Assembly (NCBI GenBank): GCA_028875725.1
Contig: JAPPCR010000006.1
Location: 272,134-336,133 of the forward strand
DNA: 64,000 nucleotides
DNA from: Acidobacteriota bacterium
Lineage (GTDB): Bacteria > Acidobacteriota > Thermoanaerobaculia > Multivoradales > Multivoraceae
Direction of reading: 5' to 3'
This document shows, piece after piece, positions 394-53,769 of the stretch (its first letter is position 1; every line of letters begins with the position of its first letter). The position numbers were made by a program, and so were the translations under genes. Below the pieces are notes generated by a model that worked only from the letters and a program-made list of their open reading frames with translations, had not been told where the DNA came from and ran no database searches.

Positions 394-401
394 CTCATTG
401 G

Positions 402-2568: not shown

Positions 2569-2615
2569 GGTGCGCCTCCCTGGGAGTGTGGCGGTGGTCG
2601 TCGGGACTTGGGCGT

Positions 2616-5665: not shown

Positions 5666-5881
5666 ATGACGACCGCGAACGTGACGACCGCCGATCCGCC
5701 CCGGACGGACGACTGGGTTGCGTGGCGCGCCCGGATCGACGAGCGCATGCAGCACATGGCGACCAAGGCCGACCTGGCTGATCTCAAGGTGTGGATGCTG
5801 AAGACCATGGTTACGACGATGGTCACGACGATGATCGGCTTCGGCGCCTTGATCGTTGCGGCGATCAGGTTGCTGCCGTAA
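5666..5881 (+). CDS. small hypothetical protein with a C-terminal transmembrane helix (71 aa)
   Basis: A GGAGG RBS lies 8 nt upstream of the ATG. It has a coiled-coil-like N-terminus, an MVTTMVTTM repeat and a hydrophobic C-terminus. Confidence 0.4.
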   Translation: MTTANVTTADPPRTDDWVAWRARIDERMQHMATKADLADLKVWMLKTMVTTMVTTMIGFGALIVAAIRLLP

Positions 5882-5938
5882 GCCGCCTGGTTGGGGCACC
5901 ACGGCTAGCCTGACGGTGGTGGCCAGCGGCCGCCACTA

Positions 5939-7183
5939 CTACGGCGGCGTCAGCGGGGTCAGGGCGAAGGCGCGGCTGGCGATGTCGATGGCCTCCTCGA
6001 TGTCGTCCGGCTGGTGCGCCAGCGACAGGAACCAGTTGAGCCGGGGGTGGAAGATGGCGCCGAGCCGGGCCGCTTGGCTGCCGAAGATGCGGGCGCGCTT
6101 GGCCTTCACGTCGCCGCGAAAGAGAAAGGTGGGCATGGTCGGTGGCCCGGACATGACGACGTCCTCGTGGCCATGCGCCCGTCCGGCGGCGACGATGCCC
6201 TCCCTGAGCCGCGTGCCCATTCGCACCATGTGCTCGAAGACGTTGTCCCGCCCGTAGATCTCGAGCGTCTTCATGCCGGCGCGGAAGGCGACCGCGGAGA
6301 ACATGTAGGTCGCGGTGAAGGCGATCCGTTCCGCGCCCTCCCGCAGTTCGTTGCGGCCGAGTACGGCCGAGACGGAGTAGCCGTTCGCCAGGGGTTTGCC
6401 CAGGCAGATGAGATCAGGCTCGAGGCCCATGCCGAGGTGGGAGCCCTTCGGGTGCATCCGGAAACCGGCGCGGACGTCGTCCAGGGCCACGCGGCACCCG
6501 GTCCGTTCGCGCGCGGCGTGAATCGCCGCGACGATTTCCGGGCTCGCCTCCCGCGTCTCCTGGCTCGGGTTCTGGTCGAGGGGGCTGATCATGATGCCGG
6601 CGAGGCGGTCTCCGAGTTCCTCCACCGCGCGCTCCAGGGCCCCGGCGTCGTTCCAGGGGACGCGCGCGACGTGCCGCTGCTCGCCGGTGGCCGGGGTTTC
6701 CGGGTGGAGCGCGATCTCGGTCCCGAAGCCGTGGTAGGAGTCCCGGAACAGGATGACGACCGGCCGGTGGGTCGAGGACCGCATGGTGCGTAGCGCGAGG
6801 TTCGTGCTGTCCGATCCGTTCTTGGTGAAGATCATCCAGTCGAAACCCGCCACCGCCTCGAGCAGTTGCTCGGCGTAGATCGGCATCGCCTCCGGGAAGA
6901 AGGCGCTGAGGTCCATCTCGCCGGCCTGCTCGGCTGCCGCGGCGTCGACCTCGGGGTGGCAGTAGCCCAGGATGTTCGGCCCGTTCCCGCAGTTGAAGTC
7001 CAGGTAGGAGCGGCCGTCCGCGTCCTCGATCCGGCACCCCTTCGCCGAGCGGATGAACCCCGGTAGCACGTCCCGACCGGCGAAGCGCGCGGACCGGGTC
7101 AGGTAGATGCCGCCGCGCGGGATGACTGTGTCCGTTCTCTCCCAGAGTTCCCGGCCCCGCGGACCGTCGACGGAGTCGTTCAT
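5939..7183 (-). CDS. class III (PLP-dependent) aminotransferase
   Basis: It shows aminotransferase class-III features (glutamate-1-semialdehyde aminomutase-like). The start was chosen at the internal ATG, which has an AAGGAG RBS. The upstream part of the long ORF is a low-complexity extension. Confidence 0.85.
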   Translation of the reverse strand: MNDSVDGPRGRELWERTDTVIPRGGIYLTRSARFAGRDVLPGFIRSAKGCRIEDADGRSYLDFNCGNGPNILGYCHPEVDAAAAEQAGEMDLSAFFPEAMPIYAEQLLEAVAGFDWMIFTKNGSDSTNLALRTMRSSTHRPVVILFRDSYHGFGTEIALHPETPATGEQRHVARVPWNDAGALERAVEELGDRLAGIMISPLDQNPSQETREASPEIVAAIHAARERTGCRVALDDVRAGFRMHPKGSHLGMGLEPDLICLGKPLANGYSVSAVLGRNELREGAERIAFTATYMFSAVAFRAGMKTLEIYGRDNVFEHMVRMGTRLREGIVAAGRAHGHEDVVMSGPPTMPTFLFRGDVKAKRARIFGSQAARLGAIFHPRLNWFLSLAHQPDDIEEAIDIASRAFALTPLTPP

Positions 7184-7187
7184 CGGG

Positions 7188-8603
7188 TCAGGCTCCTTCC
7201 GTTCCGGCCGCGGTGGCGCGCGAAGTCTCAGCTTCTTCGGCGTGGATGTCCCCCTTGACGCCGGGGCCGGCTCCTCGCGGCGGGACGTGAGGGCACTTGG
7301 CGACGGAGACGTGGTAGTCGCGCATGAGCCCGTTGATCGGCTCCGCAATCCAGGTGTTGGGTTCCATGATGTCCCACTCTTCCTTCGGGTCCTGCTCGAC
7401 ATTGAACAACTGGGGGTTGTTCAGGGAGATGCGCGTGCGCCGTCCCGCTTCCGGCTGGAACTCCACGAAGTGCATCTTGAACTGCCGCCACTTGATGGCC
7501 GCGAGTTCGTCCTTGATGAAGCACAGAAGGTGCTCACGCGGCCCTTTGTCGGTGTTCCCCAGGAAGACCCCCGACTGGTCCACGCTGTCCAGGACCCGGT
7601 CGTCCGGCACCAGGTTCCCGGCATCCGCCAGGTGGGCGAGGGTGCGGTAGAAGTCCAAGACGCTCACGATCTGGTCGCTGACGGCGCCCGCCGGCACGCG
7701 GCCGGGCCAGCGCAGGATGCAGGGCGTGCGCAACTGGCCTTCGTAGGCGGTGCCCAGGCAGCCGCGCCAGGGACCCGAGTCCGCCTGGGGGCCGAGACTG
7801 GGGATCAATACAGGTCCGTTGTCGCTGGCCCACACGACGAGCGTGTCCCGCGCTATGCCGGCCTCCTCGATGGCGTCGAGGATCTGGCCCGAGCGATGGT
7901 CGCACTCGACCATGCAGTCGGCGAAGTCGCCGCCGCGGGTCCGGCCCTTGAAGTCGGGGTGTGGCATGGCCGGATGGTGCACGAGTGAGTAGGGAATGTA
8001 GAGGAAGAAGGGCTTGTCGCCGCGCGCGTGTTCGCGGATGTAGGCCACGGACTTCTCGGTGATGATCGAGTCGACGAACGGGCGGCTTTCCAGGTTGTAG
8101 GGCTGCACCGGCACACACGGTTCGCCGAGGCGGCCCTCCCACAGCATGGGATTGTCCATCTCGTCCGGATCGAAGCCGATCAGGTCGCCGTAGATGGCGG
8201 GCGCGGTGCTGTCGCGTACGCCCCACCACTCCTCGAAGCCGAAGCGGGTGGGCATGCGCGTCTGGACGTTACCCAGATGCCACTTGCCGAAGATGGCGCA
8301 GCGATAGCCGGCATCCCGGAGCAGCTCGGCCAGGGTGTACTCCCAGGGCGCCAGCCCCTGCTTGATGCCGGGTGGAATCACCCGGTGGCAGCCGGTGCGG
8401 ATGGGCATTCGACCGGTGAGCAGGGCGGATCGGGTCGGCGTGCACTCGGCTTCCACGTTGAAGTTCGTCAGTCTCAGGCCTTCGGCGGCCAGTGCGTCGA
8501 GGCGGGGAGTCGGGGCGCCCCGCGTGATGCCGCCGCCGTAGCAGCCCAGGTCGCCGTAACCGACGTTGTCGGTCAGCATGAAGACGATGTTGGGTGGTTT
8601 CAT
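7188..8603 (-). CDS. sulfatase (arylsulfatase family), no signal peptide
   Basis: MKPPNIVFMLTDNVGYGDLGCYG...CTPTRSALLTG is the sulfatase signature region around the C/S-x-P-x-R formylglycine motif. Confidence 0.9.
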   Translation of the reverse strand: MKPPNIVFMLTDNVGYGDLGCYGGGITRGAPTPRLDALAAEGLRLTNFNVEAECTPTRSALLTGRMPIRTGCHRVIPPGIKQGLAPWEYTLAELLRDAGYRCAIFGKWHLGNVQTRMPTRFGFEEWWGVRDSTAPAIYGDLIGFDPDEMDNPMLWEGRLGEPCVPVQPYNLESRPFVDSIITEKSVAYIREHARGDKPFFLYIPYSLVHHPAMPHPDFKGRTRGGDFADCMVECDHRSGQILDAIEEAGIARDTLVVWASDNGPVLIPSLGPQADSGPWRGCLGTAYEGQLRTPCILRWPGRVPAGAVSDQIVSVLDFYRTLAHLADAGNLVPDDRVLDSVDQSGVFLGNTDKGPREHLLCFIKDELAAIKWRQFKMHFVEFQPEAGRRTRISLNNPQLFNVEQDPKEEWDIMEPNTWIAEPINGLMRDYHVSVAKCPHVPPRGAGPGVKGDIHAEEAETSRATAAGTEGA

Positions 8604-8848
8604 GCCTGCCTCTCGTTCCTCGTGCGGTGGCTGCCGCGAGGTGTCGCCGTGCGCCGTGCTGCCGGATGCGGACTGATCCTGCCACGGCGACTGCTAGCCT
8701 GACGGCCCATGTGGGCCGGCCTGCCGATCTCGACCTGGGCTCTGCTCGCGGTGTCGGTCGGCAGCGGACCGGCTCTGGTCCTGCTGCGGTGGTGGCTTGA
8801 GCGGCGTGGTCGCCGCCGCGGTCACGGGACCGCGCGGAGCGGTGCGGC

Positions 8849-10327
8849 GTGACGGCAAGCGCGCTGGTCCTCGTCCCCCTGGGCCTCTACATGCTGGTCC
8901 TGATCGGGCTCGGCCTGTGGGGCCGGCGCGAAGGAGGGAGCCTGGAGGGCTACTACGTGGCCGGCAAGAAGCTGCCCTCCTGGGTCATTGCCTTCAGTTC
9001 GAACGCCACCGGCGAGAGCGGCTGGCTGCTGCTCGGTCTGACCGGCATGGGCTACGCGGTGGGCTTCCACGCGCTCTGGGTCGTGTTCGGCGAGGTGATG
9101 GGCGTTGCGATCGCCTGGACCCTCGTTTCGCGGCCGTTCAAGGAGTACACCGACCGCTACCGGGCGATTACCGTTCCCGACTACCTGGAGGAGCGGTTCC
9201 GGGACCGCCGGCAACTGCTGCGGAAGCTGAGCATCGCGATCATCCTGTCGATGGTCGCGGTCTACTGTTGCGCGCAACTTGTCGCGACGGGCAAGGCCTT
9301 CTCGTCCTTCCTGGGCTTCAGCTACGTCCACGGCGTTTTTCTGGGCGCGGGCGTGACGATCGTCTACACGGCGGTCGGCGGCTTCAAGGCGGTGGCCTAC
9401 TCGGACCTGGTGCAGGGCCTGCTCATGGTGGGCGGGCTCGCCATGCTCCCGATCGTTGGCGTCGCGGCCGCGGGCGGTTGGCACGAAGTGATCGGCGCGC
9501 TCCAGGCGGCCGATCCCAACCTGTTACGTGCGATGGGCAGCCACGGCGCGACCTGGGCCGGCGTGCTTTCGGCTGCGAGCTTCGCCGGCATCGGCCTCGC
9601 CTTTCTTGGCGTGCCGCAGCTTCTGACCCGGTTCATGTCGGCGGCTTCCGGCCGCGAACTGGTCCGCGGCGGCCGGGTCGCGGTCGTGTGCATGGTCCTG
9701 TTCGACGTCGGTGCCGTGTTCACCGGGATCGCCGGACGGGCCCTGTTCCCGTTGCTGGACGATCCGGAGACCGTGATGCCGACGATGAGTGCGGAACTGT
9801 TCCCGGCCCTCTTCACCGGCATCTTCCTGGTCATCGTTCTGGGCGCGATCATGTCGACGGTCGATTCCCTGTTGATCCTCGCCTCGTCTTCGGTGGTGCG
9901 GGATTTCGGACAGAAGATCCTCGGTGCGGCGCGTGGCGGGGGGCGCCTGTCGCGCTACGGGAAGTTCGTCACCGCGCTCGTGGGCCTGGTGGCCATCCCC
10001 TTCGCCCTGTCCGAACCGCCGCTGCTGTTCTGGTTCATGCTCTTCGCCTGGTCAGGGCTGGGCGGCGCCTTCGTTCCGGTCATTCTCTGCTCCCTCTTCT
10101 GGAAACGGACGACGTTGCCGGGTGCGCTGGCCGGGATGGCGGCGGGATTCGCGGTGACGGTGATCTGGGTCGTACTGTTCAAGGCGTCCTACTACGACCT
10201 GTACGAGCTGATCCCGGGGCTCATCGCCGGGACGGCGGCGACGGTGGTCGTCAGTCTGTGGACGAGTCCGCCCGAAGGCGCGGCGGCGGAGTTCGAGGAC
10301 GTTCACGCGGTGGTCAGAGGTTCGTAG
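8849..10327 (+). CDS. sodium:solute symporter family (SSS) transporter
   Basis: It has multiple TM segments, and its N-terminal architecture and conserved regions are typical of SSS (PutP/SglT-like) carriers. Confidence 0.88.
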   Translation: MTASALVLVPLGLYMLVLIGLGLWGRREGGSLEGYYVAGKKLPSWVIAFSSNATGESGWLLLGLTGMGYAVGFHALWVVFGEVMGVAIAWTLVSRPFKEYTDRYRAITVPDYLEERFRDRRQLLRKLSIAIILSMVAVYCCAQLVATGKAFSSFLGFSYVHGVFLGAGVTIVYTAVGGFKAVAYSDLVQGLLMVGGLAMLPIVGVAAAGGWHEVIGALQAADPNLLRAMGSHGATWAGVLSAASFAGIGLAFLGVPQLLTRFMSAASGRELVRGGRVAVVCMVLFDVGAVFTGIAGRALFPLLDDPETVMPTMSAELFPALFTGIFLVIVLGAIMSTVDSLLILASSSVVRDFGQKILGAARGGGRLSRYGKFVTALVGLVAIPFALSEPPLLFWFMLFAWSGLGGAFVPVILCSLFWKRTTLPGALAGMAAGFAVTVIWVVLFKASYYDLYELIPGLIAGTAATVVVSLWTSPPEGAAAEFEDVHAVVRGS

Positions 10328-10342
10328 GACTACACTCGCGCG

Positions 10343-12973
10343 ATGCGCCTTAGACTGCCCTTCGTTCTTCTCATCTTCAGCACCGTAGCTGCGGCTGCCG
10401 CCGAAGATCTGTCGTACTACCTGCCGGACGCCCGCGACCCGGCGGGCTACGACCCGGGCGTGCCCCGTCCGTCCGCCGTGCTTGGCTACGAGGTGGGCGA
10501 GTGGCACGTTCGTCCCGATCAGCTCAACGCCTACATGCGGGCCGTGGCCGCGTCCTCGCCACGGGTGACCATCTCCGTGCAGGGGCACAGCCACGAGCAG
10601 CGTCCCCAGCCCCTGCTGACGATCACGTCGCCGCGCAACCATGCCCGGCTCGACGAGATCCACGAACAGCGGCGCGGCGTCGTCGACCCGCGGCAACCGG
10701 CGCCGGAACTCGAGGACCTGCCGGTCGTCATCTGGCTCGGCTACAGCATCCACGGCAACGAGCCGAGCGGCGCGAGTGCCTCGATGCTGGTTGCCTACCA
10801 CCTGGCCGCGTCGCTCTCCGACGTCGTCGCGGAGCAACTGGAGCAGGCGGTCATCCTCCTGGATCCGAGCCTGAATCCGGACGGGATCGGCCGCTTTGCC
10901 CATTGGGCGAACACGAACCGCGGCATGGTGCTGAATGCCGATCCTGCCCACCGGGAGCACCGTGAACCGTGGCCGGGGGGCCGCACGAATCACTACTGGT
11001 TCGACCTGAACCGGGACTGGCTGCTGCTGCAGCACCCCGAGTCGCGGAACCGGATGGTGACCTGGAAGGCCTGGCAGCCGAACCTGGTCGGCGATTTCCA
11101 CGAGATGGGCTCCGACGCCACGTTCTTCTTTCAGCCGGGCGTTCCGAGCCGGCGCAATCCCCTGATTCCCGAGCGCAACGTGGAGCTGACGGAAGCGATC
11201 GCGGCGCATCACGCGGCCGTGTTCGACGGCGCGGGCCGGCTCTACTACAGCCGGGAGGGCTTCGACGACTTCTACCTCGGCAAGGGCTCGACCTACCCGG
11301 ACGCACACGGCGCGGTCGGTTTCCTGTTCGAGCAGGCGAGAGCGGCGGGGCACCGGCTCGAGACGGCGAACGGCGAACTGGCGTTCGTGTACGGGATCAA
11401 GAACCAGTTACTGGCCTCGCTGTCGATGGTCGAGGGCGGCGTGGCGAAGCGCCTGGAACTGCTGGAGCACCAGCGCGACTTCTTCCGCGGCGCTCTGGCC
11501 GAGGCGGAGGCGGCCGGTCCGGCCGCCTGGGTGTTCCACGTGGACGGCGACCACGGCCGCGCCCACCGGATGCTCGACCTGCTGCTGAGGCACGAGATCG
11601 AGGTCTACGGGACGGCAGAGGAAATCGCGGTTTCCGGCCGGGCCTACACGCCGGGCACGTCATGGCTGGTGCCGCTGGCGCAGCCCCAGTCGACGCTCGT
11701 GCGCTCCCTCTTCGAGAAGGTCACCGAGTTCAACGACTCCGTGTTCTACGACGTCTCGGCGTGGACGCTGCCGCTCGCCTTCGGCGCCGAGTACGACTTG
11801 CTCGAAGGCGGCGTCTACCGGCCCGAGTTGCTGGGGACGGCGGTTACCGACGCCGCGATCGAGCCGGGCGCGTTCAGTGCCCCTCCCCGAGGTACGTCGA
11901 CCTACGCCTACGCCTTCTCCTGGGACGGCTACTTCTCGGCCCGCACCCTCAACCGCCTGCAGCGGGCGGGCGCGCGGGCCCGGGCCGCGACGGCTTCGTT
12001 CATCGCCGAGACCCCCGACGGCCCTCAGGCTTTCGAGCCGGGAGCGATCGTCGTGCCGGTCGGCCGGGACGGCGAGCCGGGCGCCAATGCCCGGGTCGCG
12101 CTGGAGGCGCTGTTCGCGGAGGCGGCGGCCGCGGACGGCGTCGACGTCCATCGCCTGATCAGCGGTCAGGCGGCGGCCGGGATCGACCTCGGCAGTCCGA
12201 GTCTGCGGCCTCTGGTCGCGCCGCGTCCCCTGCTCGTGACCGGCAGGGGCGTTTCCGCGTACCGGGTCGGCGAGGCCTGGCACGTGCTCGACGAACGCTT
12301 CGGCGTTGAGGCGTCCCTGGTCGATCTCGGAGCGCTCGGCGGCGTGGACCTGGACCGCTACACCCATGTCGTGCTGACTCTTGGCGGCTTCGGCGGCGGG
12401 GCCCCGCGGGACGACGTTCGGGATCGCCTCCGGAACTGGGTGCGGAGCGGCGGCGCGGTCGTGGCCATCGGCGCGGCCAGCCGTTGGGCAGGCGTCGAAC
12501 TTCTGGGCCGCGAAGCGGAGGTCGACGAGGGTGAGGACGCGGGCGCGTCCGAAGCGTCGGAGCGTCACCGCTACGCCGACTACCGGGACCAGCGAGCCGA
12601 GCAGCTCATGGCCGGCACGATCGTCGGCGCCGAACTCGATCTGACGCATCCGCTGGCTTACGGCTATAGGCGGTCGGCCCTCGCCGTGATCCGCACCGGC
12701 GAGTGGATCCTCCCGCCCAGCTCCGATCCCTTCGAGAACGTCGCCCTGTACCAGGACCCGCCGCGGCTCTCCGGTTGGATTTCACCCGAGAACCAGCGTC
12801 GGCTGGCCGGCAAACCGGCCGTCATCGCCAGTCGGATGGGCCGCGGCGTCGTGATTCAGCTTCTCGACAATCCAAACTTCCGCGCCTACTTCTACGGTGC
12901 CAACCGGCTGTTCCTGAACTCGATCTTCCTCTCCGGCCTGATCGACGCAACGTCGGCGCCGGATACCTGGTAG
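10343..12973 (+). CDS. secreted M14 family zinc carboxypeptidase (large multidomain form)
   Basis: It has a signal peptide. The M14 zinc-binding region GYSIHGNEPSG is present, and the N-terminus is Peptidase_M14-like. Confidence 0.85.
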   Translation: MRLRLPFVLLIFSTVAAAAAEDLSYYLPDARDPAGYDPGVPRPSAVLGYEVGEWHVRPDQLNAYMRAVAASSPRVTISVQGHSHEQRPQPLLTITSPRNHARLDEIHEQRRGVVDPRQPAPELEDLPVVIWLGYSIHGNEPSGASASMLVAYHLAASLSDVVAEQLEQAVILLDPSLNPDGIGRFAHWANTNRGMVLNADPAHREHREPWPGGRTNHYWFDLNRDWLLLQHPESRNRMVTWKAWQPNLVGDFHEMGSDATFFFQPGVPSRRNPLIPERNVELTEAIAAHHAAVFDGAGRLYYSREGFDDFYLGKGSTYPDAHGAVGFLFEQARAAGHRLETANGELAFVYGIKNQLLASLSMVEGGVAKRLELLEHQRDFFRGALAEAEAAGPAAWVFHVDGDHGRAHRMLDLLLRHEIEVYGTAEEIAVSGRAYTPGTSWLVPLAQPQSTLVRSLFEKVTEFNDSVFYDVSAWTLPLAFGAEYDLLEGGVYRPELLGTAVTDAAIEPGAFSAPPRGTSTYAYAFSWDGYFSARTLNRLQRAGARARAATASFIAETPDGPQAFEPGAIVVPVGRDGEPGANARVALEALFAEAAAADGVDVHRLISGQAAAGIDLGSPSLRPLVAPRPLLVTGRGVSAYRVGEAWHVLDERFGVEASLVDLGALGGVDLDRYTHVVLTLGGFGGGAPRDDVRDRLRNWVRSGGAVVAIGAASRWAGVELLGREAEVDEGEDAGASEASERHRYADYRDQRAEQLMAGTIVGAELDLTHPLAYGYRRSALAVIRTGEWILPPSSDPFENVALYQDPPRLSGWISPENQRRLAGKPAVIASRMGRGVVIQLLDNPNFRAYFYGANRLFLNSIFLSGLIDATSAPDTW

Positions 12974-45285: not shown

Positions 45286-45641
45286 GGGTTGCCTCCTTCT
45301 GTCTTGCCCCAAGGCTCGGAGCGGCGATCCTATGCGGCCACATCGGCGCCGTCGGCAGCGGCGTTTGCATCGGGAAGCCTGCTGACGCGCGTGCGAGGGG
45401 GCCTATAGGGAGAAGTAGCCAGTAGTCGTCACGGCGGCTCCGTCGCGTCGGTGGTGTAGGGTGGCGACAGTGAGACCGAGAGCGCGCCTGCCTGCCGGGC
45501 CGCTCGCAGAATAGCCGCCATCAAGGCGACGGGTAGCTCCCGGGCCGGGCGGTGAACACGCGGGAGTCGCATACAGCGCGCTGTCGGTCTCACGGACGGC
45601 CCGGCACCAATCCAGGCGTCGGCGCCTCACCGGAACCGTGA

Positions 45642-46490
45642 GTGGCGACCGCCAGTTCTCCCGCAGGCTACGAGCATCCCGCGCGTCAGACCAAGTTGGC
45701 TTTGGTCGAGACCGCCCATCGGATCACCGAGTTTCGGTCGTTCGCGGACCTCGGGGGGTGCTGGGGAGTCAATGGCGCGTACTCGTTCCACGCGGCCGAA
45801 CTCTGCGGCCCGAGCCTCGAACGGGCCTTCATCCTCGACGGGAGCATCACGCCGCAAACCCGCGACCGAGCGGGCCAACACCCGAGGGTCCAACTCGTCG
45901 AGACGCTGCTCGGCTCCCGCGAGGCCCACGAGGCGGTAGGCCACGTGGGCGCGGTCATCATGTTCGACATCCTGCTCCACCAGGTCGATCCCGACTGGAA
46001 CGACTTCCTGCTCGCGTGGTCGCGCCAGACCGACACACTCGTGATCCACAACCAGAACTGGCTCAAGACGCCTCGGACGATCCGCTTCGTCGAGCGCGGT
46101 CTGGAGTGGTATCGCCGCAACGTCGTGGTGTGGGAGGACGAGTACGCGCCTTCGGTGGAGCGCTGGTTCGCACGCCACCACGAACGTGACTCGCGGGGTC
46201 GGCTGGAGCGTGACAGCTACGACTTCTGGCAGTGGGGCATCCGGCCGCTCGAACTCATCAACCTGCTGGCCCGTCACGGCTTCGAGTTAGTCCACATGGA
46301 CAGAGACGCGCTGCCGTTCGGCCCGCACTACCCCTGGATCGTCAACGACGGCATGGTGTTCCGGCGTGCTGCGTTCCCCGAGGCATCGCGACGGTCCCGC
46401 ATTCGTGCGACCGCGCGAGCGCTGTTGTCCAGACGCGCCGTGACCTCTCGCCCTACCGAGACCATGCGCTTGACTGAAGTAAGGACTTGA
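45642..46490 (+). CDS. hypothetical protein, possibly a class I SAM-dependent methyltransferase-like fold
   Basis: It is a long ORF with a GTG start and a DLGGCWGVNGAYSF motif resembling methyltransferase motif I. The start is uncertain. Confidence 0.55.
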   Translation: MATASSPAGYEHPARQTKLALVETAHRITEFRSFADLGGCWGVNGAYSFHAAELCGPSLERAFILDGSITPQTRDRAGQHPRVQLVETLLGSREAHEAVGHVGAVIMFDILLHQVDPDWNDFLLAWSRQTDTLVIHNQNWLKTPRTIRFVERGLEWYRRNVVVWEDEYAPSVERWFARHHERDSRGRLERDSYDFWQWGIRPLELINLLARHGFELVHMDRDALPFGPHYPWIVNDGMVFRRAAFPEASRRSRIRATARALLSRRAVTSRPTETMRLTEVRT

Positions 46491-46863
46491 AGCACTTCTT
46501 CGTTCCTGATGGCGGGATGTTGCGACCGCACAGCGGCGGTCGGCGCTACTGGTGCCCGTGACGGTGGGGCGAGTGCGTCACCGAGAGCCTCTCGGCTGGT
46601 TCGGCACTATGACCGCCGTGGTGTTCGGCAACCTGGTCGCGTGGGCGATCGTGACCGCTGTGGTGTTGATCCTCTGGATCGGCGCCTGTGGGCTGGCACT
46701 GTCCGAGGCCGGGCGGATCCTCGAAGGAGTAGAGAGCTTGCCGTAGCTAGCGCACCGCGTTGACGGGCACGGAATCCGTCTATGCCGGTACAGGTTGGAA
46801 GAGCCGTAGGGGTTCTTCCGCTAGAGTCGCGGAGACACTCAGTCCAGCAAAGGGAGACCCGCA

Positions 46864-46920
46864 ATGCGCCCCACCGAACACACCGACAAGAAACCAGAGG
46901 CTGCGGAACCAGCCGCGTGA
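46864..46920 (+). CDS. 18-codon upstream ORF (leader-peptide-like) coupled to the downstream gene
   Basis: An AAGGGAG RBS lies 7 nt upstream of the ATG. Its TGA stop overlaps the GTG start of the next ORF (GTGA). Confidence 0.25.
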   Translation: MRPTEHTDKKPEAAEPAA

Positions 46921-47636
46921 CCGTCACAGTGTGGGCCGTGATTGCTGCGGCCGGAGCGAGCGGGGGTTCCGCCGGTTGGACGACAGCGGTGCGCGAGTGG
47001 GGACCGGTGATCGCAGCGGCAACGATCGCTGTTGTGGCGGTTCTGACGTTTCGCAGATTGAAGAAGACCGACACCGAGGAGGCGCTAGCCGCTGCCAAGA
47101 AGGAAGGCGAGTGGAAGGGCCGCATGGACGCGTTCAAGAAGAACACGACCAAGAGGCTCAAGGGGATCGACAAGAAGGTCGGTGGCATCGACAAGAAGGT
47201 CGGGGTCGTCGAAGCAACGGTTCTCCAGATCGAAGCTTGGTTTCAGCGCGCAGGAATCTCCAAGGTGAATAGCCCGCTGACACTGAACGAACTAGCCGAG
47301 AGAGCGTGGCGTGAGTTGGACGCCGAGAACTGGCTCGAGCAACACGCGGTAGAAGTGTCGGAGAAGGTCACGGACATGGGCGAGTACGATGTACAGGAAT
47401 TCTGCTTCGCCCACATGGCGACTCTGGAGTTGGAGCCTGAGCGCCAACGGCGTCTACGGAATGTCGCCTACCACAACGGCCTGACCGAGTTTCAGGTTCG
47501 CCAGATCATGGCGATCAAGCTCCGCGATCAGCTCCTAGATCTTGCGGGCTTAGACCGCCCCACTGACGAGAGAGAGCTGCCAGCGCCCCTACCAGGCCCT
47601 TGGGATCAACCTCAACAGCGACGGGGCGACCAATGA
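46917..47636 (+). CDS. hypothetical membrane-anchored protein with KK(V)GGIDKKVG repeats and a C-terminal globular domain
   Basis: A hydrophobic N-terminal helix follows a GTG start. Its stop overlaps the start of the next gene. It lies in lower-GC DNA. Confidence 0.5.
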   Translation: MTVTVWAVIAAAGASGGSAGWTTAVREWGPVIAAATIAVVAVLTFRRLKKTDTEEALAAAKKEGEWKGRMDAFKKNTTKRLKGIDKKVGGIDKKVGVVEATVLQIEAWFQRAGISKVNSPLTLNELAERAWRELDAENWLEQHAVEVSEKVTDMGEYDVQEFCFAHMATLELEPERQRRLRNVAYHNGLTEFQVRQIMAIKLRDQLLDLAGLDRPTDERELPAPLPGPWDQPQQRRGDQ

Positions 47637-47977
47637 GAGTTCACTGGAACAAGTGTGGAGACGGGGTTTGGTGCGACCTGCTCAACCTCAATCTGAACCA
47701 CCCTCACTTCAACGACCTCAAAGGTGTCTACGTGATCTGGCGAGCCTCAGACGGCCGCGTCGTCCGCGTGGGCGCTGGCGAAGTCGCTGCCCGCTTGATG
47801 GTGCACCGAAGAGCAACTTGGGCGAAGGCGCACGGCGGACTGCTGGCAACATGGACGAGGATTGAAGACAGCCAACAAGCGGGAGTTGAGCGCTTCCTTG
47901 CCGACCAACTCAACCCACTTGAAGGGAGGGCGTACCCCGACGCCGTCCCGATTCCCGTCAATCTGCCTGGACAGTGA
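47633..47977 (+). CDS. small protein with GIY-YIG-like nuclease motif (114 aa)
   Basis: GVYVIW-x8-VVRVGAGEVAARLMVH matches the GIY-(x9-11)-YIG spacing, with the conserved Arg/His downstream. It has an ATGA overlap with the upstream gene. Confidence 0.4.
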   Translation: MRVHWNKCGDGVWCDLLNLNLNHPHFNDLKGVYVIWRASDGRVVRVGAGEVAARLMVHRRATWAKAHGGLLATWTRIEDSQQAGVERFLADQLNPLEGRAYPDAVPIPVNLPGQ

Positions 47978-48125
47978 GACTCGTAGCGTCTTGATCGCCG
48001 GCACGGCACGGCACGACGGCGACCGCCCCTAGCGGATCAGCGATACGGCGAACAGGATCATCGCGGCTCCGACCACGACCGTTCAGCGGTCTGTCATCGG
48101 ACGCCCAGTAAGGTAGGCCGTCTGC

Positions 48126-48154
48126 TTGACCTATCCGCAACACAGGCTGATAAT
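48126..48154 (+). promoter_or_regulatory. near-consensus sigma70 promoter (TTGACC -17 nt- GATAAT)
   Basis: The -35 hexamer is 5/6 to consensus and the -10 hexamer is 5/6. The spacing is 17 bp. It lies about 55 bp upstream of an RBS-supported small ORF. Confidence 0.45.
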
Positions 48155-48210
48155 GAGCGGGCCTGTCAACAACCGCAGGCACCGATGGGACGACCGAAGG
48201 AGACCAGCCG

Positions 48211-48405
48211 ATGAGCCGTCGTGAGGCGGCACCGCGGAACACGTCCGCCAACGCCGCGCGGCCGACCGAGCGCTCGCGGACCGTCAAGAAGGCCGAGCGA
48301 GAGGCCGAGTTTCCCGCCCGAATCGAGGAGGCGACGCCAGAGCAGATCGCGAAGGCGATGTTCGCTGCTACGGATCTCCGTCGCCAGAAAGCGTCTGACG
48401 GCTAG
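48211..48405 (+). CDS. small hypothetical protein (64 aa)
   Basis: An AAGGAG RBS lies 8 nt upstream of the ATG. It is the first ORF downstream of the predicted promoter. Confidence 0.4.
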   Translation: MSRREAAPRNTSANAARPTERSRTVKKAEREAEFPARIEEATPEQIAKAMFAATDLRRQKASDG

Positions 48406-48476
48406 AACTGCGATACGATGCTCGGTTTCCTCGGTCCCACCGAGGCGCTTCCAGTGACTCACTTCTGGAGGTCCAA

Positions 48477-48821
48477 ATGACGACCAACATTATCCATCTT
48501 GATGCCAATCTGGCGTGGCGAGTAGCTCGCTTGGACGAGCGGCACGAGTTCCGCTGGCTCGGCATCTGCGACGAACTGAAGCTGACAGTCGAGTCCTCGA
48601 CCTATCAGGAACTCCTGGAGGACATCGGGGACGCGCTTGACGCGGTGTTTCTGGACCTCTGCCTAGAAGGCCGCTTGAACGACTTCCTGACCCAGCAAGG
48701 ATGGAAGATCGTCGATGGTGGCCAGCACTGGCTGGAGACCGACCCGAACGAACTCTCGTTCGACCTCCCCTTCACCCCTCAGCAGATGTCAAGCCGTGAT
48801 CTCGAGGCGAGTATTCACTAA
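48477..48821 (+). CDS. HicB-like antitoxin domain protein (candidate)
   Basis: A GGAGG RBS lies 7 nt upstream. The block FRWLGICDELKLTVESSTYQELLEDIGDAL resembles the HicB N-terminal domain. It lies immediately 5' of, and overlaps, the HicA-like ORF. Confidence 0.45.
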   Translation: MTTNIIHLDANLAWRVARLDERHEFRWLGICDELKLTVESSTYQELLEDIGDALDAVFLDLCLEGRLNDFLTQQGWKIVDGGQHWLETDPNELSFDLPFTPQQMSSRDLEASIH

Positions 48822-49017
48822 CAAGGTTCGGTCTCTCGGTTACAAGCGGCGTCCCGAGAAGAAGCGGTCCTACCCGTACCGCCACCCTGAAACGCTGCAC
48901 ATCATCCCGATCCCGAAGAGGCAGCAGATCACCGAACCGTTCGTCCGTTCGGCGCTCCGACAAGCTGGACTTGAACCGGAGGAGATCGAGAAGTTCATCG
49001 GTGAAGCGACTGCCTGA
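48796..49017 (+). CDS. HicA-like toxin (mRNA interferase family) candidate
   Basis: YRHPE...ITEPFVRSALRQAGL parallels E. coli HicA RHP...IKEPLRKAILKQLGL. It has a GTG start inside the upstream ORF, and the GSxH motif is degenerate. Confidence 0.5.
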   Translation: MISRRVFTNKVRSLGYKRRPEKKRSYPYRHPETLHIIPIPKRQQITEPFVRSALRQAGLEPEEIEKFIGEATA

Positions 49018-49019
49018 CC

Positions 49020-49995
49020 TTCGCTGTGCGTTAGGCCACCAGATCCCGATAGCGCAGCCGCTTCCCCTCCATGCCGCGCCACGTTGCGGCCATGCGGTCG
49101 AGCGCCGGTAGGCGCCGCAGGTTGTGGCGTCCCGCCGCCGCTTCGACGTGGCGCCGCAGGTGCTTGCGGCTCCACCAGTGGTGGACGCCGATGTAGGAGC
49201 GCTTGAGGCCGCTCCAGCTCTCGATGCTCTGAGAATGGGTCTCGGGGTTGTCGCGGTTCACGTACTCGCCGCGGGAGTGCTTGACCGTCCGGTGGCGGTA
49301 GGACTCCATCAGATCCTCGTAGCCCCCGTGGTCATCGGTGTAGACGTTGCTGCCGTGGCGGACGTGGCGCTCGCCGAACCGCGTGAGCGTGTCGGCGTCT
49401 GGCGTGTCGATCACCGCCACCACCACCGGCCCGTCGCGCTGGATCGCGCCCACGACCGGCTTCTTGCCCCAGAAGTTCTCGCCCGAGTGGAGGAGTCGCT
49501 TGGCCCGGTGGCGGTTCCGCTGCTTCCCGCCCACGTAGGTCTCGTCGACCTCTACGGTGCCGCGTGGCTTCGCGGCCCCGACCGGGAACGCCTCGCGGAT
49601 CCGGTGGAGCATGTATCAGGCGGTCGGCTGCGACCCCGATGTACTCCGCGAGCCGACCGCTCGGGATGCCCTTCGGTTCTGAGTTGAAGAGGTAGATCGC
49701 GAGCGCCCACGCGCGGTAGCCGAGCCGACTGGACTGCATGATCGTGCCCTTGCGGACCGAGAAGTGCTTCCGGCAGGCCCGACAGCGGTACGGCATCGTC
49801 GGATGGTTGACGGCGCCGTACTCGCACGACCCGCAGTCTGGACACACGGGTCCGTCGGGCCACCGCTGCTCCTCGAACCAGCGCTCGGCCGCCGCGTCGT
49901 CAGGGAACTGTGCGACCAGTTCAACGACGCTCAGATTCGGCTTGCTGGCCCGTGACTCCGGTTGTTGGTTCATGGGTGTTCGAGTCGATCAGCGC
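49020..49995 (-). mobile_element. IS1595-family insertion sequence remnant (ends not defined)
   Basis: It contains the disrupted transposase gene. Terminal inverted repeats could not be recognised by eye. Confidence 0.55.
49031..49973 (-). pseudogene. IS1595-family (ISXO2-like DDE) transposase split by a frameshift near 49613-49650
   Basis: The N-terminal zinc-ribbon part (CPDCGS...YRCRACRKHFSV) and the C-terminal part (MLHRIREA...VEVDETYVGGK) lie in different frames. A TGA sits immediately before the second-frame ATG. Confidence 0.8.
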
Positions 49996-50364
49996 CCAGC
50001 CGACGCCGGCGTGGTAAAGGATTTCGTCAGACCTCGACATCGCACTCGACACGGTCGTTCGGGTCACCTCGAGGCCGGCCTCCAGGACGGCCCTATGAAC
50101 TGCGCTGACGGGGGCCGGCGCACTGCGAGCCATCAAGAACGGCCTCACGATCTCGAGGACTTGTGCTTCGCGTGAGCCACGCACGCTCCTCTTCTTCGTG
50201 GCTCGCCTCGGTGTACGTCCGACGGGGAGTTCGAGTTGTTCTCCCAGCAGCGACGCGAGGTCGGCGGTACGGAGCCGCTCGAGAGCCGCGATCGCCTCGT
50301 CAATCGCCTGATCCAGAACCTCCTTCTTCATGGTACTCAGAAGGGCAGCAGTCAGCTTGTCCAT
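49921..50364 (-). CDS. hypothetical protein with N-terminal coiled coil and basic linker (possible DNA-binding protein)
   Basis: A GAGGAG RBS lies 6 nt upstream of the ATG. Its 3' end overlaps the transposase start in another frame, so the C-terminus may have been altered by the IS insertion. Confidence 0.4.
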   Translation of the reverse strand: MDKLTAALLSTMKKEVLDQAIDEAIAALERLRTADLASLLGEQLELPVGRTPRRATKKRSVRGSREAQVLEIVRPFLMARSAPAPVSAVHRAVLEAGLEVTRTTVSSAMSRSDEILYHAGVGWALIDSNTHEPTTGVTGQQAESERR

Positions 50365-50577
50365 TTGGCGCTCCTCGGATTCCTGTGCTACAACTGACAA
50401 AGAGAAACGTGTGGGGGGCGGTTTCCCGACCCCCGCCCCATTCCCCGGGGCCCAGTCTTCTGGCCATTGGTTTCTCCCGGTTCGAGCCGGGCGCTGACCT
50501 CATCTCCGAATGACGCGGTAGTGCCCGGCTCGTCCTTCGTTACGACAGTGTATCAGGCGTTCGGCGCAATGCAAGCG

Positions 50578-50613
50578 TGTCACGAAGAAAAATTCGTGAC
50601 ACGATCCGTGACA
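50578..50613. promoter_or_regulatory. operator-like inverted repeat TGTCACGA-N8-TCGTGACA plus a third half-site CGTGACA
   Basis: It is a perfect 8-bp inverted repeat with an extra direct copy 5 bp downstream. It sits in the divergent intergenic region about 40 bp upstream of a small RBS-supported ORF. Confidence 0.4.
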
Positions 50614-50649
50614 TGCGATGCGTGGCGGAACGCCAGCCAAGGAGAGTGC

Positions 50650-50865
50650 ATGTCCGACACTACGACCTACAGCCGAACCACAGAGAACGCTGAGATTGAG
50701 ATTGACCCCACGCCTGACGGCGAAGTCCAGATCGAGTTCCCGTCCGCGGTTCTCCCGCTGGATACGTCCCTCGTCCTGAGACTCACTCCCGAAGGGGCTA
50801 AGCGCTTCGGGGAGGAACTGATTCGCGTCGCCGATATCGCCGCTCAGGGTTCCGGCGGCGGCTGA
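50650..50865 (+). CDS. small hypothetical protein (71 aa)
   Basis: An AAGGAG RBS lies 6 nt upstream of the ATG. Confidence 0.4.
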   Translation: MSDTTTYSRTTENAEIEIDPTPDGEVQIEFPSAVLPLDTSLVLRLTPEGAKRFGEELIRVADIAAQGSGGG

Positions 50866-50975
50866 ACTTCTAGGGCGTTGGCTCACGCTCTAGGCTGCGA
50901 GTCCCTTGCGCCTCGCATTTGGCTACTCTCCCGATAGCCCCCCGTGCGAGCGCGGGACGCTAAGCTGACGCTTCG

Positions 50976-52364
50976 ATGCGTCACTTCGCAGCCTCGTCGT
51001 TCCTGCCGGCCGGTTTGCTGGTTCTTGTCGGTGCGACTGCACCCGGGCTTTCACAACCCAATCCGGATTCGGGCTGGATCGACCTGACCGCGGGTGGCAT
51101 CGAAGACGGGTGGCGGCAGCTAGGCGGCGTGGCCGAGTACGCGCTGGAGGACGGTGTCGTCGTCGGCACCGCGGTCATCGAGACGCCCAACTCCTTTCTC
51201 GCCACGACGGAGGAGTACGGTGACTTCGCGCTGCAACTGGAGTTCAAGATCGACGAGGGACTCAACGCGGGAGTCCAGATCCGCAGTCACAGCGATCCCG
51301 ACTATCGCAACGGCACGGTGCACGGCTACCAGGTCGAGATCGATCCGAGCGAGCGGGCGTGGAGCGCCGGGATTTACGACGAGGCCCGGCGCGGCTGGCT
51401 GTTTCCGCTGTCCGTGAACCCCGCGGCGAGCCGGGCGTTCCGGCAGGGAGACTGGAACCACCTCTACATCGAGGCGATCGGTCCCGAGATCCGGACCTGG
51501 CTGAACAACGTGCCGGCGACGTTCCTGATCGACGAGATGACGCCGCGCGGCTTCATCGCGCTCCAGGTCCACTCGGTCGGACCGGAGCAGGGTGGACTGC
51601 AGGTTCGCTATCGGAACGTCCTGCTGCGAACCGAAGACCTGGCGCCGAGCGGACGATCTTTCCCGTACGTCGTCGACACGCGGCCGAACCGCCTCTCCGA
51701 AGCGGAGGCGGCAATGGGTTGGAAACTGCTCTTCGACGGCGAGAGCACGGAGGCCTGGCGCGGCGCCCACCGCGAGGACTTCCCCGCCACCGGCTGGGAA
51801 GTGCGCGACGGCGAGTTGACGGTGCTCGGCTCGGAAGCAGGCGGGCAACGGGGTGGCGGGATCGTGACGAGGGAGTCCTTCTCGGCGTTCGAGCTCCAGT
51901 TGGAGTTCCGGATGACAGAGGGCGCGAACAGCGGCATCAAATACCTGGTCACCGAGGGCTACGGCTCCGCGCCCGGTACGGCGGTAGCGTTCGAGTACCA
52001 GATCCTCGACGATATGCGTCATGCCGATGCGGAAGCTGGACGCGACGGCAACCGGACGCTCGCCTCGCTCTACGATCTGCTGCCGGCCACCAAGACCGGG
52101 CGCTTCGTCCACGGACCGGGCCGCTACAACCACGCGCGGATCGTCGTTCGCGCCGACGGCGCCGTGGAGCACTGGCTGAACCATCAGCTGGTGCTGGCGT
52201 TCGACCGGAAGTCGGCGGAACTCGACGAGGCGATCGCCCTGAGCAAGTTCGCCGGTCGGGAAGGGTTCGGCAAGTGGCCGGAGGGCCGCATTCTGATCCA
52301 GGACCATGGCGACGAGGTCGCGTTCCGCAGCATCAAGGTGCGCCGCCTCGACGGCACGGAGTAG
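50976..52364 (+). CDS. secreted protein with two tandem DUF1080 (3-keto-disaccharide hydrolase) domains
   Basis: It has a signal peptide. Two repeats of about 200 aa share W...G...W and L/I-Q-x-H blocks typical of DUF1080. Confidence 0.8.
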   Translation: MRHFAASSFLPAGLLVLVGATAPGLSQPNPDSGWIDLTAGGIEDGWRQLGGVAEYALEDGVVVGTAVIETPNSFLATTEEYGDFALQLEFKIDEGLNAGVQIRSHSDPDYRNGTVHGYQVEIDPSERAWSAGIYDEARRGWLFPLSVNPAASRAFRQGDWNHLYIEAIGPEIRTWLNNVPATFLIDEMTPRGFIALQVHSVGPEQGGLQVRYRNVLLRTEDLAPSGRSFPYVVDTRPNRLSEAEAAMGWKLLFDGESTEAWRGAHREDFPATGWEVRDGELTVLGSEAGGQRGGGIVTRESFSAFELQLEFRMTEGANSGIKYLVTEGYGSAPGTAVAFEYQILDDMRHADAEAGRDGNRTLASLYDLLPATKTGRFVHGPGRYNHARIVVRADGAVEHWLNHQLVLAFDRKSAELDEAIALSKFAGREGFGKWPEGRILIQDHGDEVAFRSIKVRRLDGTE

Positions 52365-52393: not shown

Positions 52394-53668
52394 ATGCGCG
52401 TGCGCCTCGCCTACGGCCGCGGAGGCCTCATGATCGACGTCCCGAGTGAGCGGACGACGGTCATCATGCCGGTCCAGGCGCCCGCGCTGGCGGATCCCGA
52501 CGCCGCCCTGACCGCGGCGCTTCGTGCTCCGGTGGCCGGCCCGCCGCTGCGGGAACTGGCAAGCCCCGGTCAGACGGTGGCGATCTCGGTATGCGACATC
52601 ACGCGGGCCCAGCCGCGGCGGGAGATGGTCGCCGCGGTGCTGCGGGAACTCGAAGGCGCCGTCCGCCCGGAGGACGCCACCATCCTGATCGCGACCGGCA
52701 CCCACCGGGCGAACACGCCGGCCGAACTCCAGGCGATGCTCGGCAACGAGATTCTCGGCTCATGCCGCGTGATCAACCACGACGCTCGCGATGACTCTTC
52801 TCTTGTTGACCTGGGGGAGACCGGCAACGGCGTTCCGACGCGGCTCTGCCGGCACTGGCTGGAGGCGGACCTGCGGATCACGACCGGCTTCGTCGAGCCC
52901 CACTTCTTCGCTGGTTTCTCGGGCGGTCCGAAGATGGTCGCCCCGGGGCTCGCCGGGCTCGACACCGTGCTCACCCTGCACGACGCCGTCCGCGTCGGCG
53001 ATCCCCGGTCAACGTGGGGGATCGTGGAAGACAACCCGCTGCACAGCGACATCCGGGCGATCGCGGCGCGGCCGGAGGCGAAGCCCCACTTCAGTGTCGA
53101 CGTGCTGCTCGACCGGCAGCAGAGGATCACGCACGTCTTCGCGGGCGAGCTCTTCGAGATGCACCGCCGTGCCTGCGCGGCCGCGAAGCCGATCGCCATG
53201 CGGGAGACCAATCACCGGTTCGAAGTCGTGGTGACGACGAACTCCGGCTATCCGCTCGACCAGAACCTCTACCAGGCGGTCAAGGGGATGTCGGCGGCGG
53301 CGCAGGTGGTTGCCGACGGTGGAACGATCCTTTGCGCGGCCGAGTGCAGCGATGGCATTCCGGACCACGGCCGCTACGCCGAACTGCTCGGTCGCGGCGG
53401 CTCGCCCGAGGAACTGCTCCGGCAGATCGAGGCTCGGCAGGAAGCCGAGCCGGACCAGTGGCAGGTCCAGGTCCAGGCGTTGATCCAGCGGCGCGCCCGG
53501 GTGCTGGTCAAGGCGGACGGGCTGAGCGGGGACCAGCTTGCCGCCGCTCACTTCGAGCCGGCGCCCAACCTCGATGCCGCGCTCGCCGAGTGCGTGGCGG
53601 CCCGGCCGGACGCGCGTATCTGCGTGCTGCCCGAAGGGCCGCAGACGATTCCCTACGTCGCGGACTGA
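52394..53668 (+). CDS. LarA-like protein (nickel-dependent lactate racemase family, DUF2088)
   Basis: Its length and the conserved blocks (ATGTHR, GGPK, ECSDG) match the LarA family. It is the C-terminal portion of a longer artefactual ORF. Confidence 0.8.
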   Translation: MRVRLAYGRGGLMIDVPSERTTVIMPVQAPALADPDAALTAALRAPVAGPPLRELASPGQTVAISVCDITRAQPRREMVAAVLRELEGAVRPEDATILIATGTHRANTPAELQAMLGNEILGSCRVINHDARDDSSLVDLGETGNGVPTRLCRHWLEADLRITTGFVEPHFFAGFSGGPKMVAPGLAGLDTVLTLHDAVRVGDPRSTWGIVEDNPLHSDIRAIAARPEAKPHFSVDVLLDRQQRITHVFAGELFEMHRRACAAAKPIAMRETNHRFEVVVTTNSGYPLDQNLYQAVKGMSAAAQVVADGGTILCAAECSDGIPDHGRYAELLGRGGSPEELLRQIEARQEAEPDQWQVQVQALIQRRARVLVKADGLSGDQLAAAHFEPAPNLDAALAECVAARPDARICVLPEGPQTIPYVAD

Positions 53669-53737
53669 TCGTCGCCGCTTCGCGGCGCAGTATCTAGGCC
53701 GCCTTCGGCGGCAGCGGGTCAGAGGACCCGCGCACCC

Positions 53738-53769
53738 AGAAAAAGGGCCTCCCCGTCGCCGGGGAGGCC
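53738..53769 (-). terminator. rho-independent terminator for the TonB-dependent receptor gene
   Basis: It has a perfect 11-bp GC-rich stem (GGGCCTCCCCG/CGGGGAGGCCC) with a 4-nt loop. On the minus strand it is followed by TTTTTCT. Confidence 0.6.

Follow-up and report, generated by a model that had tools for sequence, protein, structure and literature searches.

The question raised by this locus is how a segment of aberrant base composition came to lie in the genome of an uncultured sponge-associated acidobacterium (contig JAPPCR010000006.1). The window that we analysed is a stretch of 64,000 nucleotides (nt) of this contig, and coordinates are positions in that window; related loci are numbered Lnnn, and P0001 is a transposase homologue. 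A first-pass annotation had described positions 46491-50950 as a mobile island of low guanine-plus-cytosine (GC) content, with an IS1595 transposase remnant as one item of its cargo, an unclear mode of acquisition and a possible role as an accessory or defence locus. Based on comparison with related genomes, we found that the segment is very probably a single transporter insertion sequence (tIS) of the IS1595 family, a transposase gene and its passengers within one pair of terminal repeats, which occupies 45398-50942 (5,545 bp). The right limit given earlier is exactly the end of the right target-site duplication, whereas the left limit was misplaced by 1.1 kb and really lies at 45398.

The difference in composition that had been noticed earlier proved to be real. 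The GC content is 0.639 in 45398-50942 and 0.689 in the remaining sequence of the window (z = -4.0, from 190 windows as long as the element); the strand-symmetric tetranucleotide L1 distance between the element and the rest is 0.270, a value that other windows of equal length do not reach (0.120 +/- 0.020, maximum 0.151). In windows of 400 nt the GC content falls to 0.585-0.63 at ~46.8-48.9 kb and at 50.0-50.9 kb, with flanks at ~0.69, and among windows of 2 kb the lowest value in the whole 64 kb (0.608) is that of 47001-49000. Within the element the cargo is a mosaic, with a GC content per gene of 0.58-0.68. The element is of foreign composition and was horizontally acquired.

The element sits in the short spacer that separates two divergent genes, one of the Ldh_2 family and the other encoding a 3-keto-disaccharide hydrolase (DUF1080; 50976-52364, PF06439). 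With the DUF1080 protein as query we collected 46 related loci, 30 of which showed 79-95% protein identity and came from metagenome-assembled Candidatus Multivorans, Thermoanaerobaculia and Holophagales genomes. Comparison of window 38-56 kb with the 46 loci by blastn gave three patterns. In half of them (23 loci, from Candidatus Multivorans and Thermoanaerobaculia genomes) the sequence of window ~45332-45396 directly adjoins that of ~50943-50955 and the element is not there; four other loci had an unlinked left flank. As the flanks abut in the 23 relatives, the whole of ~45.4 to 50.94 kb is missing from them, including a 282-amino-acid (aa) "MTase-like" gene that had been placed outside the island and is in fact part of its cargo. 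The segment is thus an insertion, and neither uniform GC content nor conserved synteny with relatives was seen. In five more distant relatives (L017, L018, L020, L023 and L035) the same Ldh_2/3-keto-disaccharide-hydrolase spacer is occupied by a VapBC-like pair of 0.7-1.2 kb, which makes the spacer a recurrent insertion spot. In L017 the pair (9164-9852, the counterpart of window spacer 45313-50975) consists of a 148-aa PIN protein (Pfam E 3.3e-13) and an 81-aa partner.

The closest empty site, in L001, reads ...GCGCGTGCGAACGCGGGACGC... and carries a single copy of the target, CGTGCGAA, the sequence across the junction being ...GACGCGCGTGCGAACGCGGGACGCTAAGC.... In the window the octamer CGTGCGAG is present twice, directly outside a pair of inverted repeats, and this sets the bounds of the element at 45398-50942. 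The terminal inverted repeats are 24 nt long and imperfect, with 21/24 matching positions and one gap. They were obtained from the empty-site comparison; a generic inverted-repeat finder had overlooked them because of the 1-nt indel. When the left repeat was searched for in the window the sole match was the repeat itself (0 expected by chance), and the terminal-repeat pattern was not found in the 46 related loci. The coordinates of all features are collected in the table.

Table. Features of the IS1595-family element and its immediate borders (positions in the window; a dot denotes no strand).
Feature	Coordinates	Strand	Remarks
Left target-site duplication copy, 8 bp, CGTGCGAG	45390..45397	.	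exact second copy at 50943-50950; single in L001
Left terminal inverted repeat, GGGGCCTATAGGGAGAAGTAGCCA	45398..45421	+	aligns with reverse complement of 50919-50942
282-aa cargo protein, unannotated family, predicted class I S-adenosylmethionine (SAM)-methyltransferase fold	45642..46490	+	structural model and Foldseek
45-aa hydrophobic (membrane) peptide, cassette gene 1	46609..46746	+	Kyte-Doolittle maximum 2.56; called by gene callers
239-aa membrane-anchored protein, GTG start	46917..47636	+	matches 239-aa gene call
114-aa protein, predicted GIY-YIG fold	47633..47977	+	ATG overlaps upstream stop (ATGA, 47633-47636)
Promoter-like site TTGACC-17-GATAAT	48126..48154	+	10/12 consensus; upstream of 64-aa open reading frame (ORF)
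64-aa ORF, candidate backbone gene	48211..48405	+	beside related IS1595 transposases in window, L047 and L051
114-aa HicB/DUF7387-like candidate antitoxin	48477..48821	+	similarity to L055 DUF7387 protein
73-aa HicA-like ORF, GTG start, probably degenerate	48796..49017	+	26-nt overlap with HicB-like gene
IS1595-family transposase pseudogene	49031..49973	-	Pfam domains in two frames
147-aa ORF	49921..50364	-	called by gene callers; GAGGAG Shine-Dalgarno site; overlaps transposase start by 53 nt
Perfect palindrome CGTGTCACGAA-N6-TTCGTGACACG, 11-nt arms, operator-like	50576..50603	.	in divergent spacer between 147-aa and 71-aa ORFs
71-aa ORF	50650..50865	+	called by gene callers; AAGGAG Shine-Dalgarno site
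Right terminal inverted repeat, reverse complement GGGGGGCTATCGGGAGAGTAGCCA	50919..50942	-	
Right target-site duplication copy, 8 bp, CGTGCGAG	50943..50950	.	repeat of 45390-45397

The transposase gene had been recognised in the first-pass annotation as a frameshifted remnant, and this was borne out by two Pfam domains in two frames of the minus strand: Zn_ribbon_IS1595 (PF12760) in 49332-49973 (E 3.9e-9, 36.8 bits against a cut-off of 25.4 bits) and DDE_Tnp_IS1595 (PF12762) in 49031-49612 (E 2e-29, 103 bits against a cut-off of 27 bits). A search with the repaired translation returned 6,650 homologues, the best of which carry the name IS1595 family transposase. The best intact one, P0001 (304 aa, 84% aa identity), is encoded on contig L047. 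Compared to P0001/L047, the window gene has a 2-bp deletion near 49633, an in-frame 3-bp deletion and, in the downstream frame, a change of TGG to TGA at 49616-49618, so that ...TQSSAWYMLHRIREAFP... now reads ...SQPTA*YMLHRIREAFP.... With these lesions the transposase is dead and the copy a non-autonomous relic, mobile only with transposase supplied by another copy. A replaced N terminus was also considered for the window transposase and rejected, since its 11 extra codons are normal length variation among relatives.

The contig that carries the intact homologue also provided a sister element. L047 shares with the window the transposase gene (86.6% nt identity, window 49029-49908) and the region of a 64-aa ORF with its promoter (78% nt identity, window 48125-48389). 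A repeat near-identical to that of the window, GGGGCCTATCTAGGAGAGTAGCCAG, precedes the transposase ATG by 45 bp, an inverted copy follows 3.6 kb downstream, and the element thus delimited (7932-12541, 4.6 kb) has an intact transposase and an 8-bp duplication, AGTGCGGC. Apart from the 64-aa-type gene, its passengers differ from those of the window: they are a 179-aa membrane protein related to the C-terminal domain of the window 239-aa protein, a reprolysin-like protein and a 185-aa ORF. The summed statistics of a tblastx comparison with L047 were noise and were disregarded. Because the same repeats and an 8-bp duplication bound an element with an intact transposase and different cargo, the window element is very probably a tIS of the IS1595 family, and what had been taken for a mere piece of cargo would be the gene that moved the whole segment. 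The usual target duplication of the IS1595 family is 8 bp, which agrees with the four elements that we measured (window, L047, L088 and L141). In L047, the right flank has a 20-nt inverted counterpart ~100 bp beyond the left repeat (7809-7830 and 12542-12563), and the target there may have been a palindromic, REP-like sequence.

Two further complete elements were found. The first, of 3,135 bp (L088 3672-6806, on a metagenome contig of an unrelated low-GC organism), has 25-nt repeats and an 8-bp duplication, GATTTTAG. Its whole cargo consists of an Ion_trans_2 channel-like gene and a member of the GIY-YIG-fold family described below, in the same layout as in the window; a NikA/RHH-like 76-aa ORF lies between its transposase and the repeat. 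The second (L141 6787-11066, 4,280 bp) has the repeats GGGGATTATAAAGTAGGGTT, an 8-bp duplication, AAGACGTA, an intact transposase of 323 aa and six passenger ORFs, all of them without annotation. Just beyond it lie a ThsB_TIR gene and a DUF4365 gene. For the more distant L051 and L052 we could not locate the ends of the elements. The neighbourhood of the L051 transposase (1-11230; transposase 71% identical) includes a NotI-type restriction enzyme, a D12-class methyltransferase, an SLFN/AlbA_2-HATPase_c_4 protein and a second Zn_ribbon_IS1595 fragment.

The history of the window element may be pictured as follows. The cargo would have been gathered earlier, cassette by cassette, which would explain the mosaic GC content: a SAM-methyltransferase-fold gene, a three-gene cassette, the 64-aa putative backbone gene with its promoter, a degenerate HicB/HicA-like pair, and two small ORFs by the transposase. 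From what is known of DDE transposases and of the IS1595 family, both repeats would have been recognised by a P0001-type transposase, which would have inserted the whole 5.5-kb unit by cuts staggered by 8 bp. After the insertion the transposase would have decayed by the 2-bp deletion and the nonsense codon, and the copy would have become fixed. Contigs of several further samples carry this insertion as well, ten contigs altogether and with 100% identity over 5,700 nt, which indicates that it is fixed in this population.

Some points weigh against this reading. All ten contigs share one site with 100% identity and no second genomic site was found among them; with a single copy and no transposition observed, the activity is deduced from the structure of the ends and from the sister elements. 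The 8-bp duplication is taken as a hallmark of the family on general background and on the four elements measured. In addition, the transposase-side repeat lies ~950 bp from the transposase start, compared to ~45 bp in L047, and this distance, together with two extra ORFs in between, implies that the element has been remodelled. The same distance would fit an alternative in which each repeat stems from a different event, or both belong to a non-autonomous derivative, for example a small insertion sequence (IS) that afterwards grew in place or a unit mobilised in trans like a mobile insertion cassette. The dead transposase and the sharp borders of the cassettes would fit this alternative as well. 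However, one 8-bp duplication brackets the whole unit, L001 is without all of the unit at once, and the sister tISs of 3.1-4.6 kb with intact transposases make whole-unit transposition normal in this group, and we consider the alternative improbable. Moreover, growth in place leaves the outer structure unchanged, so that it differs from insertion of a complete tIS only in the timing of cargo capture. It is most improbable that the segment is a generic genomic island acquired by another route (integrase, phage or recombination) with the IS1595 remnant as one cargo item among several, because although its heterogeneous GC content and modular cassettes fit a patchwork, and although the spacer tolerates insertions such as the VapBC-like pair in five other genomes, it has no integrase, tRNA gene or phage-family match, and an unrelated route does not predict exact edges made of the inverted repeats of the transposase lineage and an 8-bp duplication. 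A prophage remnant and an integrase- or tRNA-linked island were rejected, as no phage families were found and neither of the other features is present.

The tIS, an IS with passenger genes inside its repeats, is a class already in use (Siguier, Gagnevin and Chandler 2009, cited in PMC3129680; 10.1101/2021.05.26.445724), and TnCentral describes the class as restricted to two IS families (10.1101/2021.05.26.445724). Like the IS1595 tISs, the window element has a DDE_Tnp_IS1595 domain with an N-terminal zinc ribbon, one pair of terminal repeats, an 8-bp duplication and passengers within. Between the repeats there are about nine ORFs besides the transposase, and with 5.5 kb and about nine passenger ORFs the element is far larger than a simple IS of typical size. 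It differs from IS1595 tISs in its inactivated transposase, in the two ORFs between the transposase and the nearer repeat, in its host, an uncultured sponge-associated acidobacterium, and in the absence of classical resistance or metabolic cargo. The IS1595 tIS is thus a kind of element already known, and it is some of its passenger genes that are uncharacterised.

That the segment would be a defence locus remains a guess from context. PADLOC (PADLOC-DB 2.0), NCBIfam and PHROGs, when run on all ORFs of the island, gave nothing above threshold and did not support it; in PADLOC the GIY-YIG-fold protein gave a weak match to RT_UG4 (see below) and every other protein none. In agreement with the first-pass annotation, no integrase domain or tRNA gene was found in the segment. 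There was no Rfam match either; two Rfam hits at E < 1 were to eukaryotic long non-coding RNA models and were taken as chance.

Part of the cargo is a three-gene cassette. The first-pass annotation had seen a membrane protein overlapping a GIY-YIG-like protein, which the ATGA overlap and the structural model described here support. The first gene encodes the 45-aa peptide, for which L141/L142 have a syntenic counterpart with 87% aa identity and L143 a remnant. The 239-aa protein has an N-terminal transmembrane (TM) segment at about residues 27-48, a coiled coil and a conserved C-terminal domain, and it belongs to a family of 651 representative clusters, typically of 160-200 aa, with the same layout and no Pfam domain; its orthologue in L055 is 89.5% identical. 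A 21-nt tandem repeat in the window (GGATCGACAAGAAGGTCGGTG / GCATCGACAAGAAGGTCGGGG, 47164-47212) encodes a GIDKKVG repeat in the coiled coil, and the number of coiled-coil repeats differs widely among members of this family. The start/stop overlap between the membrane gene and the third gene is conserved not only in the window but also in L055/L056 and L071. In L055, which is an unrelated locus from a different Multivorans-type genome, the sequence of window 46768-47978 is found with 87% nt identity, and the strong match stops at the stop codon of the third gene. Window 46586-47973 recurs in L141/L142 beside a reprolysin-like gene, and partly in L143. Given this recurrence at L055, L141/L142 and L143, ~46586-47978 is a movable cassette in its own right.

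The third gene of the cassette encodes a 114-aa protein that, based on its model and motifs, is predicted to be a GIY-YIG protein at the level of fold and motif, with a predicted role as a nuclease. Its family (referred to as GIY-like) comprises ~50 clusters at 90% identity, all of ~115 aa and without a Pfam domain, with the order GIY ... YIG ... R ... H ... E ... N. Among 47 sequences Y33, G47, E86 and N110 are invariant, and at least 90% have R54 and H58; conservation does not extend to the Tyr of YIG, which is Arg in the window copy. The structural model has a predicted local distance difference test (pLDDT) score of 93.2 and a predicted template modelling (pTM) score of 0.87, and the top Foldseek matches were only GIY-YIG nucleases, ranks 1-9 being the UvrC N-terminal domain. 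An hhalign comparison with a Pfam-positive GIY-YIG neighbour protein placed GIY, YIG and R..H in register. The protein gave no match to Pfam PF01541 at E <= 0.1 and no match in a search of PDB sequences. Positions 62-112 of the PADLOC RT_UG4 (DRT) model matched the GIY..YIG..R..H stretch over 51 residues (E 3e-4, 18 bits). In L064 a Pfam-positive 91-aa GIY-YIG gene (3765-4040; PF01541, E 3.5e-5) lies 71 nt upstream of a GIY-like family member, giving two small GIY-YIG genes in tandem. Compared to known members of the superfamily (R.Eco29kI, the UvrC N-terminal domain, T4 EndoII, PD-T4-3 and I-TevI), the 114-aa protein differs in lacking a PF01541 match and a conserved YIG Tyr, in a longer spacing from Glu to Asn, in a unique W/C-rich N-terminal hairpin of 30 residues, and in standing alone at ~115 aa, often in an operon with membrane proteins.

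We surveyed the genomic context of the GIY-like family in 83 metagenome loci, which were searched for with a subset of 10 sequences, as the full alignment of 47 was too diverse. An Ion_trans_2 channel-like protein of 310-350 aa with a SLGYGD filter-like motif is encoded immediately upstream on the same strand in 16 of the 83 (Pfam E 3e-11 to 3.5e-13), a ~120-aa protein with two TM segments just downstream in five, and YdjM downstream in one; the partner of the 239-aa type occurs in the window, L055/L056, L141/L142 and L143. The type of partner follows the clades of the GIY-like tree. An HMM (hidden Markov model) search for a homologous C-terminal domain shared between the channel-like partners and the 239-aa protein found none. 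IS1595 or IS1 transposases were present in 10 of the 83 loci (406 kb), compared to none of 46 control loci (895 kb), and these transposase-linked loci fall on seven or more different branches of the family tree.

With low confidence, we suggest that the membrane-associated partner in these cassettes serves to control or localise a small GIY-YIG nuclease, the two forming a conflict-type module for maintenance of the element or for defence that travels as a passenger of IS1595 and IS1 elements. It is possible, though we propose it only tentatively, that the 45-aa/TM-coiled-coil/GIY-YIG cassette and the Ion_trans_2/GIY-YIG cassettes together make up a class of small, membrane-coupled GIY-YIG nuclease modules that is so far undescribed, serving element maintenance or abortive-infection-type defence and spread mainly by transposons of the IS1595 and IS1 families. 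Several observations speak against it: more than half of the GIY-like loci have no adjacent membrane partner, the function of the cassette has no match to any known-system model apart from the weak one to RT_UG4, neither the GIY-like nor the 239-aa family had relatives in viral contigs, and plasmids gave no tblastn match. A literature search on GIY-YIG proteins with ion channels in defence, and on DUF7387, yielded nothing usable.

The loci without a membrane partner bring up the main rival view of the cassette: the GIY-YIG-fold gene would be selfish and free-standing, encoding an endonuclease of the homing type and spreading its own cassette, with the membrane genes as bystanders. We regard this as doubtful. 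The ~115-aa protein is without the DNA-binding domain by which I-TevI and the Seg proteins differ from it, the ATGA overlap with the membrane gene is kept in the different loci named above, and the agreement between partner type and tree clades suggests that the genes are inherited together as operons.

The 282-aa protein gave no match in Pfam, NCBIfam, PADLOC or PHROG, or in a search of PDB sequences, and its 185 homologues are all named 'hypothetical'. An AlphaFold (AF2) model built from 51 sequences (pLDDT 90.7) gave 480 PDB matches below 1e-3 in Foldseek, and the top ones were all SAM methyltransferases at probability 1.0, including DnrK, EvdMO1 and MrsA. D36, G38 and D66 are invariant or nearly so in the family, where a D-x-G motif I and, after strand 2, an acidic residue are conserved. 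The model thus supports a class I SAM-methyltransferase fold. Close relatives of the protein occur in L138, within a restriction-modification island, and in L140, within the early region of a Mu-like prophage.

The 64-aa ORF looks like a backbone gene of the element from its distribution: it shows 79% aa identity to a 60-aa gene of L047 and 68% over 25 aa to a 72-aa gene of L051, which abuts the transposase stop. The promoter-like site upstream of it is the sole one found in the island (0.4 expected by chance), and both of its hexamers are kept in L047. In the first-pass annotation this near-consensus promoter had been assigned to a HicB/HicA-like pair. The pair remains plausible, although below thresholds; the promoter-like site precedes the 64-aa ORF and is not directly upstream of the HicB-like gene. 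The HicB-like ORF matched no Pfam family and no PDB sequence; it shows 28% identity over 65 aa (E 1e-4) to a DUF7387 protein of L055 that precedes a genuine HicA and is itself a weak match to HicB_lk_antitox (E 0.08). The HicA-like ORF, which the gene callers did not call, gave Pfam HicA_toxin at E 0.019 (15.5 bits, under the 27-bit cut-off), PHROG 353 'toxin' at E 0.0019 and PDB 1whz at E 0.11, all under curated cut-offs. The catalytic histidine of HicA sits in a G-[SG]-H motif, and in the weak alignment with 1whz the Ser in KRSYPYRHP is opposite the His of GGH.

As in HicAB, the two genes are small, adjacent, co-oriented and overlapping, with the antitoxin-like gene first and an overlap of 26 nt here and of 29 nt in the same layout of L055; one has weak similarity to HicA_toxin, PHROG 353 and PDB 1whz and the other to the DUF7387 protein. 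Unlike HicAB, neither member exceeds a curated threshold, a Ser takes the place of the G-[SG]-H histidine, and the nearest promoter drives the 64-aa ORF first. A divergent or decaying pair of the HicAB type is a plausible reading of these sequences. A precedent for toxin-antitoxin (TA) pairs inside transposons is given by the Tn3 family (PMC7157771), and as in those carriers a small two-gene TA-like pair lies here beside the transposition gene. The window element differs from them in transposase family and mechanism, and its TA-like pair is below threshold, has a toxin-like member that lacks the canonical histidine and may be decayed.

The remaining ORFs lie near the transposase-side end. No family match was found for the 147-aa ORF (Pfam, PADLOC and NCBIfam; also no PDB sequence match) or for the 71-aa ORF. 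The tiny ORFs with strong Shine-Dalgarno sites and the operator-like palindrome of the first-pass annotation were both recovered, the former with AAGGAG/GGAGG visible and the latter as the perfect palindrome of the table. Outside the element, window 53665-53742 is a second variable spot: the window has a short spacer there, and relatives hold from 0 to ~6 kb extra (e.g. L004, L012, L023 and L029).

The route by which the segment was acquired is explained by transposition of a passenger-carrying IS, with limits set to the single base. The IS1595 tIS class gains four complete examples of 3.1-5.5 kb from uncultured bacteria, three of them from sponge-associated Acidobacteriota and one from a low-GC metagenome contig. 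Three unannotated families emerge as recurrent mobile cargo, i.e. the ~115-aa GIY-YIG-fold proteins, the membrane/coiled-coil proteins (651 clusters) and the SAM-methyltransferase-fold proteins. If the pairing of a membrane partner with the GIY-YIG protein is functional, it would represent a new conflict module of two or three genes; otherwise the element would be an ordinary decayed transposon.

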